Shown one piece after another: positions 58,481 to 64,000 of a stretch of 64,000 bases of DNA; within the stretch, counting starts at the first letter, position 1; each line of letters opens with the position of its first letter. The translations under genes were made by a program, and so were the position numbers. The notes below the pieces were generated by a model that did no database searches, was not told where the DNA came from, and saw only the letters and a program-made list of their open reading frames with translations. The DNA comes from an uncultured Acidobacteriota bacterium (GTDB lineage Bacteria; Acidobacteriota; UBA6911): NCBI GenBank assembly GCA_963827655.1, contig CAWHCF010000010.1, positions 192,001 through 256,000 on the forward strand, read 5' to 3'.

Positions 58481-60034
58481 ATGAGAAGATTCCGAATCGT
58501 TGTTCCGTCGTTCCTATGGCTGCTTGGCGTCAGCGCCTGGAGCGCTGACTGGCTGACTGATGGCGGCGATGTGATGCGCACCAACTGGCAGAAGGACGAA
58601 AGCATCATCAACACGAAGAACGCGAAGGACATCAAGTTACTTTGGAAAATCAAGCTGGACAACCAGCCGCGCCAGATGCATTCGCTCCTCCCTCCGCTCG
58701 TAATTGGACGCGTCAACACCGGCAGCGGTCCGAAGCAGCTCGTCATCCAGGCCGGCGTCTCGGATAATCTCTATGCTATCGACGTTGCTACAGGTGAACT
58801 CCTCTGGAAGAGGCGTTTTGAAAGCACATACGAGGACCCGCCCGGCGCCCGCGGACCGACTGTGCTGTGCCCCGGAGGCATGACGGCAAACGTGACGATC
58901 GGACCCGGGGGAGAGCCCGGCAAGTACACTATCTACGCCGCCTCCTGGGACGGCCGCCTGTGGCAGGTCAACGCTGCCGACGGAAAGGACAATGCTCCGC
59001 CTGCCAAATTCATGCCCCCCAACGGCAAGCCGTATGCGATGAACCTGTTCAAGAACGTTCTGTACACCCACAGCGCGCAGGGTTGTGGCGGCAACCCGAA
59101 CGTCGTCTACGCCTATGATCTGGCCACCCACAAGGTAGGCAGTTGGGGACCGGCGGGCGGGGGCATGTGGGGCCGATCCGGTCCTGCCATCAGCGCCAAC
59201 GGAACGATGTATACCGGAACGGGCGACGGGCGTTGGGACCCGGAAAACGGAGTCTTCGGCAACGGTATTATCGGCGTGAAGCAGAATCCCGAGACCAAGA
59301 GTCTGGAGCTCGTGGACTACTACGGGCCTTCCAACGCCGAATGGCTCTTCAAGCGTGATCTGGATATGCAGGTGACGCCCACCATTTTCAGTTACCAGGG
59401 CAAGGAGTACATGGTGGACGCCAGCAAGGAGTGTCGTCTTTACTTTATGGATACGGAATCCATCGGCGGCGACGATCATCGGACACCAGTCTACCGCACG
59501 CCCCTCATCTGCAATGAAATTGTGGATTTTGCGGAGGCCGGCATCTGGGGTTCCCTGGCCACGTGGGAAGAATCGAATGGAACCCGTTGGCTGTTGACAC
59601 CCTTTTGGGGACCGAAGCACTCCCAGTTCAAGGCGCCGGTGGAGCATGGCGAAGTCAAGAAGGGCGCCATCGCAGCGTTCAAGGTGGAGCCGAAGGAGGG
59701 CAAAGTGCAGTTGTCGCCGGCGTGGATTTCGCGCGACATGGATCAGGCCGAGCCCCCCGTGATCGCCAATGGCGTGGTATATGCCTATGGCAGCGGCGAA
59801 AACACGGCGCAGGCATTTCCGGACGTGGGCCTCGACTTCCGGATGGAGCGGCGACTTCCCAAGTCGACGCACGCCGTGCTGTACGCCCTGGATGCCCAGA
59901 CAGGCAAGGAGCTCTGGTCCAGCGGCAAGCAGATCCCCACGTGGAATCACTGGGGCGGTCTCGCGATGGCCAACGGGCGGGTGTACATCAACACGTACGA
60001 CGGGGTTCTGTACTGCTTCGGCATCAAGAAGTGA
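58481..60034 (+). CDS. PQQ-binding-like beta-propeller protein (divergent paralog)
   Basis: Signal peptide, [53 protein letters not shown]. Confidence 0.88.
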
Positions 60035-60072: not shown

Positions 60073-60178
60073 GACGCAGGGACGTTGAGAGAAGATGGGC
60101 CAGCGCGTGGCATCTTTACGCTTTCGCTTTCACAGAACGGGTAGAAGAAACCTTGGCTGCACCCCCGGCAGAGCCTGC

Positions 60179-61048
60179 ATGCAGGCTGTCGCGTTTCTCG
60201 ACGCGCCGCGCGGTTTCGGCCGCCTTGCGGTGCGATCAAATGAGAAACGCACTCCGCGCGCCGCCGGCCGATCTCGCAACCGGCTCTGTGGATTTCGGTA
60301 TTTCTTCGGCTTGGTTGTGCTCCTGCTGTCCAGTGTTGGAGTGTCGGTCCAGGCCCAAACGGTGGACCCTGCCAGGACCATCGCCGAGTTGGAACGGGAG
60401 TTGGCCGCTCACGTGCGCCTCCTGAGTGACTGGGGCGGTCTCACACGGTACGGCAGCGAGAATGCCGATCTGGGTCCCCCGGCTCCGGGCGTTGATCGAG
60501 TGGTTTTTCTGGGCGATGAGATCACCGAGATGTGGGGCCGGGGCGAGGCGAAGTTTTTCCCCGGAAAGCCGTTCTTGAACCGGGGCATTCGTCATCAGAC
60601 CACGCCCCAAATGCTGGTCCGCTTCCGCCAGGATGTCATCAGCCTGAAGCCGAAGGTCGTGGTGATCCAGGGAGGTTCCAGCGACCTGGCGGGTTACTCG
60701 GGTCCAGCCACCCAGGGCACCATCTCCGAGAATTTCATGTCGATGACCGAACTTGCCAAGGCCAACGGCATTCGCGTTGTGCTGGCCTCGGTCACGCCGG
60801 TCTGCGACTGCTTCAAGATCCTGACGGACCGCCGGCCGCCGGGAAGGATCATTGGAATCAACGGATGGTTGAAGGATTACGCGGCCGAAAGCGGTTCGGT
60901 CTACCTCGACTACTATTCTGCGCTGGTCGAAGGCCGGGCAATGAGGAAGGAATTCACCGTGGACGGTCTCATCCCGAACGACGCCGGTTACAAGGCGATG
61001 GCTTCGCTGGCCGAGCAGGCCATAATCCAGGCTCTGGGCCCGAAGTGA
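60179..61048 (+). CDS. SGNH/GDSL-fold protein lacking catalytic residues; start uncertain
   Basis: RVVFLGDEIT, NRGI..QTTPQMLVRFRQDV, GGSSD, DGLIPN. Confidence 0.82.
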   Translation: MQAVAFLDAPRGFGRLAVRSNEKRTPRAAGRSRNRLCGFRYFFGLVVLLLSSVGVSVQAQTVDPARTIAELERELAAHVRLLSDWGGLTRYGSENADLGPPAPGVDRVVFLGDEITEMWGRGEAKFFPGKPFLNRGIRHQTTPQMLVRFRQDVISLKPKVVVIQGGSSDLAGYSGPATQGTISENFMSMTELAKANGIRVVLASVTPVCDCFKILTDRRPPGRIIGINGWLKDYAAESGSVYLDYYSALVEGRAMRKEFTVDGLIPNDAGYKAMASLAEQAIIQALGPK

Positions 61049-61142: not shown

Positions 61143-61270
61143 TCATTGGTCATTTCTCATTCGTCATCTGTCATTTGTCATTAGTGGGTGCTGCGGGCGG
61201 GTTTGCGCTCGCAGACTACGCGGGCCTTGTTACCCCATGAATGACAAATGAAAATGAACAGACCTGATGA
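61143..61270. repeat. Inverted heptamer array (TCATTTG/CAAATGA variant of family A)
   Basis: (TCATTNN)x6 ... ATGAATGACAAATGAAAATGA. Confidence 0.7.
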
Positions 61271-61325
61271 CCCGTCGCCACAGTCAAATTGCAGGGTTAG
61301 AGCTGAGGTTTCAGCAACCGCGGGG

Positions 61326-62813
61326 TCAGCGCTTGGGCGCAACGTCGGCGTCAAACGCGGCGGTCAGGATCCGATCTCCGACCTTGACCTGAACCCAGAG
61401 GCGATAACGGCCGTCCTGCGGGAACTCGAATGGAAAGGAGACGGTGCCGCCGGCCACGGCGGCGTGCTCGCTGTGATCCACTGGCTTTGTGGTTGCGCCG
61501 GCGCCGCGCTCGAGTACCTGCTGAGCCGCCATCGAGAAACTCCCGGCAGGATGGATGTGGGCGAAGACGGAACCGTCATCGCGCCGGACGGCCATGTGTC
61601 CCAGCATCCCCATATAGGGCTCGAGCGCGGCCGGGCGGCCGTCGCTCCCGCGCACCTGAAAAGTGAGAGATGAGGGCTGCCCCGCGACCAGCTCCTGCTG
61701 TTGCCAGACCATGACGATACCGTCGGCGAGCGGAGCCGCCGGGCTTGCCGCGCCACCAAGCGCCGCGGCGACGTGGAAGGAGTCGTCAGGATCGGGTTCG
61801 GGCGCGGCGCCCGGCGCCGCCGTTGATGGGGCTTCGGGTACGTCGACACGATCGGTCAGAGTCTGCGCATATCCGCTCTCGTGCGTGACGTCGGCGTAGA
61901 CGACGTAGCGGCCGGCGGGGAGCGGCGGCAACCTGACGTCAAAAGTGTTCGGGTCAAGGCGGAGCGGATGGAGGTGCGCGAAGGCGTCGAGCGCCGGCTC
62001 GCGCACGAGGAACATGTGCATCAGCTTGCCATGGTCCGGCACCAACGGACTGAAGCGGTTCCGTCCCGGTTCCTGCGCGAGCCACCGCGGATCGTCGATC
62101 GCCAGGCGGAGCACGCGCTGCGAGGCCACGGAGCGGACGCCGGTGGTGATGTGGAGCGGGCGAAACATGTTGGCGCGGTAGCGGGCGTCGACGCTGTTCC
62201 ACCATGCCCTCCCACCCGCGAGCACGAGCGCCAGAACGAGAGCAGATCCGGCGATGACGCGTCGACCACGGGCCCGGCGGGCCGCGTCGGGAACTTCGCC
62301 GGGCGGAAGCACGGCCTCGCGCGCCGCAGCGCCGAGGATGGTCAGGGCCCCGACAAACAGCAAAAGACCGAGCCCTGCGAACAGCACGCCGAGCCCCCGG
62401 TCGATTCCGAGCCGCCGCGTCGCCACCGACATCACCGGGACGACGGCCTTGCCCGACCCGGACGTGCCTTCGACCGCGACGTGGATGCTGTAGGAGCCGA
62501 AGTCCATGAGCCAGAGCTCCGCGCTCCGAAGGGTCGCGTCGCCGCGCACCGGCTGTGCCAGATCGGGGGCTGGCGCACCTTTGGTGCCGGCGTCCCAGCG
62601 GACGGGTTGGACCGTGACCCTCCCCACCTCCGGGCTCTCGACTCGGACGGTCACTTCGGCGCGTCCCGGCACGACGCCGGGCGGGCGGACGATCACGTCG
62701 ATCGCGTAGGGCCCGGCGTTGCCATGATAGAAAACGGTCGAAGCGCCGATGTGCCCCCAGGTGGCGAACGGTATCGCGATAAGGAAAGCGAGGCGCGCGA
62801 GCGTCCTGATCAC
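61326..62813 (-). CDS. His-rich membrane-anchored periplasmic protein with PmoB-like topology; putative copper-binding
   Basis: Signal peptide predicted to expose N-terminal His21, ~110-aa beta domain, two TM helices, then two repeats (HGKLMHMFLV..FAHLHP; YMGMLGHMAV..FAHIHP). GTG start overlaps the upstream stop (GTGA). Confidence 0.75.
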   Translation of the reverse strand: MIRTLARLAFLIAIPFATWGHIGASTVFYHGNAGPYAIDVIVRPPGVVPGRAEVTVRVESPEVGRVTVQPVRWDAGTKGAPAPDLAQPVRGDATLRSAELWLMDFGSYSIHVAVEGTSGSGKAVVPVMSVATRRLGIDRGLGVLFAGLGLLLFVGALTILGAAAREAVLPPGEVPDAARRARGRRVIAGSALVLALVLAGGRAWWNSVDARYRANMFRPLHITTGVRSVASQRVLRLAIDDPRWLAQEPGRNRFSPLVPDHGKLMHMFLVREPALDAFAHLHPLRLDPNTFDVRLPPLPAGRYVVYADVTHESGYAQTLTDRVDVPEAPSTAAPGAAPEPDPDDSFHVAAALGGAASPAAPLADGIVMVWQQQELVAGQPSSLTFQVRGSDGRPAALEPYMGMLGHMAVRRDDGSVFAHIHPAGSFSMAAQQVLERGAGATTKPVDHSEHAAVAGGTVSFPFEFPQDGRYRLWVQVKVGDRILTAAFDADVAPKR

Positions 62814-63983
62814 CGTTTCACCCGCGCCATCCAGCCACCCCAGGCGAGTCCGAGTCGGGCCGAGAGGAAAGAGAACAGGAGCGCCAATCCCAGACCGCGC
62901 AAGCTGAGCGGGTCCTGGGCCTGGTTCCAGAACTGGTAACGCCAGGGACCCGGGCGGGCGTCGTACGACCAGATCCGGTCGCCCCCGAAGAACCAGTTGC
63001 GCGACAGCGGGGAAAGCAGAAACTCGGAGAAAAAGAACTGCGCCGCGAGGAAGAGCGCGAAGAACACCGCGCCCACCGCGGCTGCCAGGACCCAGTCACT
63101 CTTGCAGGTCGCGCGGCGGAGCAGGAGGTCGATCCCAAACGCGGGGATTACAAGGAGCAACGGAAAGGCCGGCGGCACCATGTGGGTCACGCGGTTGTAG
63201 ATCGGGCCGAGCAGCGGTTCGGCCGGAAAGAGCGGCAGAATCCAGAGCATCGCTGCGATCAGCAGCATGTAAACGGCGGCCGCGGTGGTCGCGGGCCAGC
63301 GCAGCTTCGAGCCGCGCGCGGTCGCGAGGAGTAAGATGGGATACAGACCGCAGCTTATCTGATAGAAGAGCGAGGCGTGCTGCTGGTTGGGAGTGTTGTA
63401 CTCCATCACCAGGAGCGCGAACAGCGCAATCAGCACCCCCGCAGAGTAGCCGAAGAGTACCTGGACCCGCCCTGTCGGCGGGCCCCCTCCCGTTGTTCTG
63501 CCATGCTAACGAAAGAAGCAGCGAGCCCAGAATAATTCCGAGGATCCCGGCGGCAAGCACCGTGTGGGGCGGGCTCAGCACCTCGACGTCGAGACCATAG
63601 GCGTTGTGCCACCAGTCATCGAAGGGCGCGGAGGTCAGCATCGCAATCGCGCCCCAGATGGCGACCCACGCTCCGAGCGGCGCCCGGAAACCCCAGACCG
63701 GCACCGATGCGCCGCGTTCCGCGGCGCTTCCGGCAAAGGTCGTCTTGAGCGCGAGCCAACCCGAGGAGAGTCCGCCCAGGATGCCCCCCAGGTACATGGC
63801 CACGTGCGCCGGCGTCCAGAAGGTGTCGCGCCCGATCGTCGAGTGCCATGAGATGTCCCAGATGGCTCCGACGATGATGCTGGTCGAGCCCACTGCGAGG
63901 GCGTACAGGTACCACGGGACAGCGCTCGAACGCTCGGTCGGAACCGGCCCGACCTGGTCGAGAGACACGGCGGCGTTGGACAT
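62810..63983 (-). CDS. Multi-pass membrane protein with PmoC/AmoC-like metal-site motifs and PmoA-like C-half; frameshift near 63485
   Basis: WDISWHSTIGRDTFWTPAH and FDDWWHNAYGLDVEVLSPPH. ORFs 63096..63983 and 62810..63436 join into about 390 aa on removing one base of a G-run. RBS AGGAGG. Confidence 0.8.
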
Positions 63984-64000
63984 CGAGACCTCCTTGCGTG

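Follow-up and report, generated by a model that had tools for sequence, protein, structure and literature searches.

Does a two-gene locus in an uncultured Acidobacteriota bacterium encode a relative of the copper membrane monooxygenases (CuMMOs), and, if so, of what kind? The locus lies on the minus strand of contig CAWHCF010000010.1, within a stretch of 64,000 nucleotides that we call the window and to which all positions refer. Its first gene, F1 (62810..63983), encodes a membrane protein of 390 amino acids with ten predicted helices and carries a +1 frameshift in this assembly, as judged from the open reading frames (ORFs), three-frame translation, hydropathy and the intact homologue P0001. 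The second gene, F2 (61326..62813), encodes a partner of 495 amino acids, which according to its ORF, alignments and hydropathy consists of a signal-peptide-like start, a histidine at position 21, a beta-rich domain 1, a two-helix hairpin and two repeated His-rich domains. A first-pass annotation, made from the sequence alone, had proposed a fused PmoC/PmoA-like protein with a PmoB-like partner. The pair is best read as a copper-binding, CuMMO-like membrane module, and we commit to the reading that it oxidises neither methane nor ammonia. The annotation's own caution, that nothing in the locus is evidence of methane or ammonia oxidation, stands.

The question matters because of what is at stake in subunit C. 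Passages of PMC13058606 and PMC11725843 describe both AmoC sites as two histidines plus an aspartate (CuC) or an asparagine (CuD) and as the likely active-site region. They also present the active copper site of particulate methane monooxygenase (pMMO) as well as of ammonia monooxygenase (AMO), placed in the CuC/CuD region, as still debated, and the enzymes as difficult to express and to work with. A simpler relative, made of two proteins and with both triads retained, could be a workable model of the CuC/CuD site.

The N-terminal half of F1 was compared with PmoC/AmoC through profiles. The family profile was an alignment of 61 full-length F1-family sequences, chosen from 120 and 150 listed rows with fragments and multi-stretch rows excluded. 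Reference subunits came from CuMMO operons located in genomes by a DNA pattern that was back-translated from the loop of AmoC; of 120 pattern loci, 43 had C, A and B ORFs that were all complete, and Pfam recognised all 43 sets as AmoC, AMO and Monooxygenase_B. Intact F1 was represented by P0001, and F2 by the window's own 495-aa protein (P0121). Searched against 177,635 PDB sequences, the F1 profile gave only three matches at E<=10. All three were AmoC (9leg_C, 2.8e-4; 9cl6_C, 6.5e-3; 9pxf_G, 0.011), on F1 residues 23-81 around the first triad; a search of the PDB with the single F1 sequence gave none. Among the Pfam families matched by the 61 members, AmoC was the sole one found in more than two of them (12/61, best E 0.0011, none over the cut-off). 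The NCBIfam model AmoC_BACT weakly matched F1 residues 42-137 with its positions 131-217. The weak Pfam and NCBIfam matches were all to AmoC and fell exactly on the first triad.

Profile-profile comparison with hhalign gave the same answer. Against the 43 AmoC/PmoC sequences, the whole F1 protein reached P 1.5e-6 (probability 90%), residues 1-95 reached 4.7e-8 (95%) and residues 1-178 reached 3.4e-7 over 104 columns, while the controls (reversed AmoC, AmoA, AmoB and their reversals) stayed at 0.04-0.6. A hidden Markov model (HMM) of AmoC gave 193 F1 homologues a median score of 14.7 bits and a top score of 25.8; the reversed sequences had a median of -0.8 and a maximum of 2.8. These specific matches, set against flat controls, bear out the PmoC-like N-terminal half of the first-pass annotation. 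The similarity centres on the loop between helices 1 and 2 (63804..63857), where translation and profile alignments place D43-x3-H47-x12-H60 on the CuC loop of PmoC/AmoC. The F1 loop reads W-D-I-S-W-H-x-S-I-G-R-D-T-F-W-T-P-P-H and the AmoC consensus reads Q-D-G-T-W-H-Q-T-I-V-R-D-T-D-F-T-P-S-H, so that D43, H47 and H60 align to D134, H138 and H151 of the AmoC reference. Besides the ligands, the loops have S, W, R-D-T and T-P in common, and of 262 distinct near-full-length F1 homologues, 206-255 retain each of the non-ligand residues S45, W46, R52, D53, T54, T57 and P58. From these alignments, homology of the first hairpin to PmoC is highly probable, and a remote relationship of F1 residues about 40-160 to the PmoC/AmoC metal core is supported.

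The second triad, D122-x3-H126-x13-H140, lies between helices 3 and 4 (63564..63620); like the first motif with its R52-D53, it is present as the annotation had read it. A relaxed alignment is collinear, placing F1 5-176 on AmoC 92-263 and D122/H126/H140 on N205/H209/H223, the Asn/His/His ligands of CuD. These three AmoC residues are invariant in all 43 reference sequences and lie outside the pattern by which the reference was collected. The spacings within the sites are equal in the two proteins (x3/x12, then x3/x13); F1 has its two sites 79 residues apart, AmoC 71. The hairpins of F1 duplicate each other (residues 22-80 against 101-160, P 6e-6). In AmoC, the two hairpins compare with each other at P 0.092, and the duplication is no longer detected. 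F1 probably carries a two-site PmoC-like core, as far as alignment and repeats can indicate.

The ligand positions are conserved across the family. Asp-His-His-Asp-His-His occupies the six ligand positions in 244 of the 262 homologues, with D43 kept in 258, H47 in 247, H60 in 256, D122 in 260, H126 in 253 and H140 in 254; conservation of all six across homologues was one of the checks that the annotation had suggested. Copies only 33-34% identical keep both triads. The commonest variant, D[E/D]H-DQQ, changes both sites together: exact in 4/262, it has E or D in place of H47, and Q in place of both H126 and H140. This branch hints that the two sites act as one unit or bind another metal. Ten hydrophobic segments are found in F1, and the charges of its loops follow the positive-inside pattern, with at least three Lys plus Arg in loops 80-100, 161-174, 222-233 and 285-297 and in the C-terminus. 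Both triad loops are thereby predicted to lie outside the cytoplasm. By hydropathy, the triads stand between segments 3/4 and 5/6 in AmoC and between segments 1/2 and 3/4 in F1. PmoC/AmoC and F1 would have in common a four-helix unit with two Asp/Asn-x3-His-x12/13-His sites in outer-face loops. F1 helices 1-4 would be tandem helix-loop-helix hairpins, each with an Asp-x3-His...His triad in a non-cytoplasmic loop, and would correspond as a remote homologue to the PmoC/AmoC helices 3-6 that hold CuC and CuD.

A more distant F1 homologue, P0393 (689 aa; E 1.5e-26 to the F1 HMM), has the triads D-x3-H-x14-H and D-x3-H-x13-H. It also has an N-terminal extension, a C-terminal beta-rich domain of its own and a final helix. 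P0393 had no Pfam match and no AmoC similarity by HMM.

The C-terminal half of F1 (residues about 179-390; 62810..63449) is predicted to form six further helices, with a long loop before the last, and would probably stand where PmoA stands in the CuMMOs. The six hydrophobic segments and the long loop are common to AmoA. In hhalign, F1 about 170-388 is collinear with AmoA about 20-250 (30-253 in a separate run) over 172-208 columns, which takes in nearly all of AmoA. The P values were 0.0016 for the C-half alone, 0.0055 with the re-aligned family and 0.0032 in a separate run, with probabilities of 7-16%; controls gave 0.3-0.6. Among block-shuffled AmoA decoys, 1/100 scored as high as real AmoA. 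Five conserved identical columns (W247, P274, A281, D285 and W316) are common to the two families; five such coincident columns occurred in 0/100 decoys and four in 7/100, in a test that is not independent of the decoy scores. The position of this half after the C-like part also matches the C-A-B gene order. The segment pairs that the annotation had matched by eye are aligned and collinear, while the statistics for its PmoA-like C-half stay weak. We put the chance that the C-half of F1 is PmoA-like at about even.

The product of F2 has the layout of PmoB. Both PmoB/AmoB (PF04744) and F2 start with a signal peptide or signal-peptide-like sequence and an N-terminal histidine, followed by a soluble beta domain, two helices and a further soluble beta region, and in both cases the gene follows that of the membrane subunit or subunits. 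F2 was examined in two alignments, one of 52 from 120 listed rows and one of the first 70 of those 120 rows that were 470-560 aa long. His21 (codon at 62751..62753) is invariant in 52/52 and 70/70 of these homologues and is kept in 2/2 divergent genome copies; it is the predicted first mature residue, after a putative cleavage site. E53 and D84 are at least 94% conserved. A hairpin formed by hydrophobic helices 141-159 and 183-201, with a positively charged loop between them (residues 141-201; 62211..62393), separates domain 1 from about 290 more soluble residues, and would place the soluble domains outside the cytoplasm, on the same side as the F1 triad loops. Domains 2 and 3 (about residues 215-335 and 365-495; 61329..62171) are repeats of each other (P 7e-5). 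They hold the invariant residues H261, H266, H280 and H282 in domain 2 and M401, M403, H406, H419 and H421 in domain 3.

F1 and F2 are paired well beyond the window. The F1 family is large: 7,991 of 8,000 scored candidates matched at E<=1e-3, nearly all of about 390 aa (at least 7,991 clusters at 90% identity), and an exhaustive search of 50%-identity representatives gave 2,115 matches at E<=1e-3, 1,252 at 1e-10 and 298 at 1e-30. F2 was matched by 2,678 of 8,000 scored candidates. The F1 matches listed had no precomputed Pfam domain, and their sources name them only "hypothetical protein". The named sources of F1/F2 homologues are Thermoanaerobaculia, Acidobacteria, Longimicrobium and metagenome-assembled genomes of Gemmatimonadetes. 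A full-text search of the literature found no description of the family, with supplements and subscription journals outside the search. Of 80 metagenome loci, 63 were informative on the neighbour of F1, the other 17 having less than 300 nt downstream of it. F2 adjoins F1 on the same strand in 61 of the 63, with HMM-projected gaps near zero or negative; in the remaining two it is found about 4.7 kb downstream. All four genome loci have the pair, including the copies only 33-34% identical. In the window, the F1 stop and the F2 start, a GTG at 62813, overlap by four nucleotides as GTGA (62810..62813), which suggests translational coupling. The pairing, whose conservation the annotation had suggested checking, is kept at nearly all of these loci, and the near-zero gaps fit the coupling that it had noted. 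Given this conserved overlap, the two proteins probably form a physical complex.

In the two loci with distant F2 (L173:5964-10669 and L187:7179-11808), genes for a GMC-family FAD oxidoreductase, a secreted protein that matched no Pfam family and a protein with a C92 (YaeF/YiiX-like) amidase domain stand between F1 and F2. These were treated as an insertion rather than as members of the module, as they occur in only 2/63 loci. A natural chimera, P0024 (481 aa; sources ncbi and ena, longest contig 8.38 Mb), runs from F1 residues 9-194 straight into F2 HMM positions 153-500, much as a deletion fusing an F1 helix to the helical hairpin of F2 would produce. A search for F1 relatives of greater length gave four matches; two of them, P0390 and P0392, resemble the products of reading through frameshifted or overlapping genes, since the HMM match lacks part of F1. 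None of these longer forms, P0024 included, was counted as Rosetta-stone evidence.

How far does the likeness to the CuMMOs go? A number of results weigh against it. F1 stays far below the curated AmoC cut-offs of PF04896, TIGR03078 and NF041641 (13.5 vs 26.7, 14.2 vs 280.6 and 14.5 vs 319 bits). The significant signal falls mainly within about 20-30 columns in the first loop. The AmoC reference was itself picked by a pattern taken from this loop, and its profile is sharper there as a result; the matches in Pfam, NCBIfam and the PDB are independent of this choice. Taken alone, the second hairpin compares with the AmoC CuD region at P 0.098, with Asp in place of Asn, and it scores better on an unrelated N-terminal stretch of AmoC (P 0.0013). 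Hydrophobic segments 1 and 2 of PmoC are missing from F1, and the match covers AmoC about 92-263 only. Also unlike PmoC, its hairpins are still recognisable duplicates and are fused to six more helices. The PmoA similarity of the C-half is below any accepted threshold: an AmoA HMM did no better on 193 single F1 sequences than on reversed controls, and AMO is not among the Pfam families listed for the 61 members.

The F2 partner adds to these points. Its comparison with the PmoB profile gave P 0.093, with 0.14 for the reversed control, and 0.062 in a separate hhalign run, and no Pfam PmoB match was found. Residues 21-135 hold no second invariant histidine for a CuB-type HxH, which in the PmoB reference involves H29, H134 and H136. 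In the PDB, F2 had one chance match as a single sequence and none as a profile. F2 has one soluble domain more than PmoB, and the His/Met cluster of its third domain is lost in divergent copies. F2 is, by these comparisons, an analogue rather than a homologue of PmoB. Thus, of the PmoB-like partner proposed at first, the layout and the invariant predicted N-terminal His are kept, while homology is not supported, with profile scores at control level. The proposed C-A-B order needs a similar adjustment. The CuMMO operons (xmoCAB) have three separate genes, whereas the module has two, here and in 61/63 loci, and the order is compatible only if F1 is a C-A fusion.

Distribution and gene neighbourhood also fall on this side of the balance. 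F1 is patchy, being found in 0/40 relatives (24 of the same family and 16 of the same class) and in 8 of 151 genomes sampled within the phylum; the eight include G000 and G024, the latter flagged as unpublished and used for no other claim. Across the 80 metagenome loci, no neighbour besides F2 recurs in more than nine, and there is no conserved dehydrogenase, reductase or copper-regulator gene to point to catalysis. The host genome (90% completeness) has no AmoC, AmoA or AmoB above cut-off, a weak negative for subunit B in that the PF04744 search matched no control genome either.

The sharpest form of these doubts is that the resemblance is convergent or fortuitous, a metal-binding loop on an otherwise unrelated polytopic protein, such as a transporter or a membrane hydrolase that depends on zinc or iron, next to an equally unrelated periplasmic Ig-like protein. 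The significant alignment core is indeed short, at 20-28 columns, neither the second hairpin nor the C-half is independently significant, and no curated threshold is reached. Moreover, the CuC site of PmoC has been seen with zinc in crystals. Chance would nevertheless have to account for seven common non-ligand positions that the family keeps, for three independent libraries pointing only to AmoC, for a second triad that is collinear with the same spacings, and for reversed-sequence controls that stay flat. We regard this explanation as improbable.

With the copper-binding, CuMMO-like module retained as the best reading, the next question is what the module does. It would be a self-contained two-gene unit for a membrane complex that binds a metal, most likely copper, on a CuMMO scaffold. 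F2, anchored by its helical hairpin, would present the predicted N-terminal His and two His/Met-rich beta-sandwich domains on the same side as the F1 triads. Oxygen or peroxide may be activated at the PmoC-type site of F1. The substrate would probably be membrane-soluble, and F2 may supply copper and/or reducing equivalents. A copper-dependent oxidoreductase is favoured since the residues of the catalytic loop are conserved and no polar path runs through the membrane: the only conserved F1 positions inside helices are D285 and Y238, and the conserved polar residues lie at the outer face. From this sequence evidence, we rate the oxidoreductase as a serious candidate with a chance slightly short of even.

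Another possibility is that F1/F2 is not an enzyme at all and instead captures copper, or another metal, and hands it over or imports it. F2 would then take periplasmic Cu(II) through its N-terminal His and His/Met-rich domains and hand it on to F1, for storage, relay or translocation at the Asp/His/His sites, by analogy with CopC-CopD, YcnI/YcnJ and the N-terminal-His domains found on HupE/UreJ transporters. Such a role is favoured by the YtkA/CopC-like character of the partner and by the stand-alone two-gene unit; copper-handling pairs, too, often stand without metabolic neighbours. Sub-threshold Pfam matches of the 52 F2 members were to YtkA-like domains (12/52, best 8.4e-5), CopC (5/52), DUF2271 (4/52) and other Ig-like or E-set sandwiches. 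They give faint hints that the F2 domains are YtkA/CopC-like rather than cupredoxin-type. Precedents exist: passages of PMC8424229 describe YcnJ as a CopC-CopD-YtkA fusion and YcnI as binding Cu(II) through its N-terminal His plus a Glu, and part of PMC12537917 describes N-terminal-His domains attached to membrane transporter domains. F2 has in common with these systems an N-terminal His on a secreted beta-sandwich, which in F2 may form a mono-His brace together with a carboxylate; a single N-terminal His plus carboxylate, as in YcnI, is therefore a possible model for F2. YtkA-like domains beside a polytopic membrane protein are likewise common to YcnJ-type proteins and F1/F2, and P0393 carries its C-terminal beta-rich domain and helix within the same chain.

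The membrane partner, however, is not CopD-like. The 61 F1 members matched 32 families, and the 25 of these that were listed include neither CopD nor another transporter; no family but AmoC recurs. All YtkA and CopC matches lie under their curated cut-offs, and no conserved copper-regulator gene stands nearby, which sets F1/F2 apart from YcnJ and CopC-CopD. Further points against a capture system are that the conserved polar residues sit at the outer face rather than along a membrane-spanning path, and that F1 retains the catalytic loop of PmoC in its non-ligand residues too. We hold capture and hand-over to be rather unlikely, on evidence that is thin for separating them from catalysis.

Should the oxidoreductase prove right, a wider claim can be put forward tentatively. 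F1/F2 could be an unrecognised, widespread sister lineage of the CuMMOs in which a shortened C subunit is fused to an A subunit and PmoB has given way to a His-brace protein that is not its homologue, acting as an O2-activating enzyme of soil heterotrophs of the Acidobacteriota or Gemmatimonadota type. In this proposal, which we consider possible but short of probable, the hairpin duplication seen in F1 would reflect the origin of CuC and CuD. The CuC/CuD pair of pMMO and AMO would then have arisen by tandem duplication of one metal-binding helical hairpin. The module would extend CuMMO-type chemistry, or at least its scaffold, to organisms in which oxidation of methane or ammonia is not known, and would give a view of how the CuC/CuD site evolved. 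Even a role in copper trafficking would name two large unnamed families.

In the window itself, F1 is broken. The ORF starts at the ATG at 63983 and runs in frame 0 to about residue 168, from where frame +1 leads to the stop at 62810. The break lies inside a G/C run at 63474..63476, where the assembly has one base more than P0001 and related metagenome contigs. P0001, a protein of 390 aa from a public metagenome, is 99% identical to the N-terminal part of F1 and reads through the break; against the host genome it matches in two pieces, with 98% and 96% identity and no internal stops. Contigs from three soil metagenomes were aligned over 62900-63900, and all four that span the break (two from X1 and one each from X2 and X3) have one base fewer at 63474 or 63476. 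These contigs differ from the window at several further positions and so derive from relatives rather than from the same strain. The repair to a 390-aa protein that the annotation had made is justified by P0001 and by these contigs.

A genuine pseudogene, whatever the family does elsewhere, would explain the same break. The extra base is after all present in the assembly, and the lack of F1 in the 40 relatives would fit a gene that is dispensable and was acquired recently. F1 is likewise in two pieces in genome G110 (L209:2427-3949), where overlapping ORFs span HMM positions 9-206 and 203-389; one in-frame TGA is reported in the N-terminal match, and the F2 next to it is intact. Intact sequence in P0001 and in all four spanning contigs argues against decay, though it comes from relatives, and so do two halves that are otherwise stop-free and 96-98% identical to P0001. 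A further point concerns a PSCyt2/PSD1 (DUF1549/DUF1553) gene at L003:6239-8396, beyond the window end and about 2.3-4.4 kb upstream of F1. Inside a domain, it breaks into overlapping ORFs of 545 aa and 209 aa, the break lying exactly between PSD1 model positions 84 and 85. A second split gene so close by hints at indel errors in the assembly. The extra base in F1 is thus more likely an assembly indel error than the mark of a real pseudogene, which we consider unlikely. We rejected a programmed frameshift, given that the extra base is absent from relatives and that F1 of G110 breaks at a different place.

The module stretch occurs in many soil and rhizosphere metagenomes. Contigs from an RNA library cover 63009-63331 and 63554-63841, which shows the presence of the sequence in that library and, with DNA carry-over possible, gives a weak hint of F1 expression. 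A Shine-Dalgarno-like AAGGAGG, read directly from the sequence, lies 5 nt upstream of the F1 ATG (63989..63995, minus strand). A promoter scan found no site. About 50 nt past the F2 stop, a hairpin scan gave a terminator-like hairpin on the minus strand (61257..61276); such sites are no commoner than in shuffled sequence (2 found vs 2.4 expected), and the position alone is suggestive. The genes upstream of F1 are divergent and the gene downstream of F2 is on the opposite strand, so that F1 and F2 form a two-gene unit. The upstream neighbours are a PPC-domain protein, the PSCyt2/PSD1 protein, a DUF1501 protein and ThuA, and are uninformative on function. Downstream, the plus strand encodes a secreted PQQ-like beta-propeller protein (58481-60034) and a GDSL/SGNH lipase-like protein (60095-61048), both opposite to the module and in an adjacency that is not conserved elsewhere.

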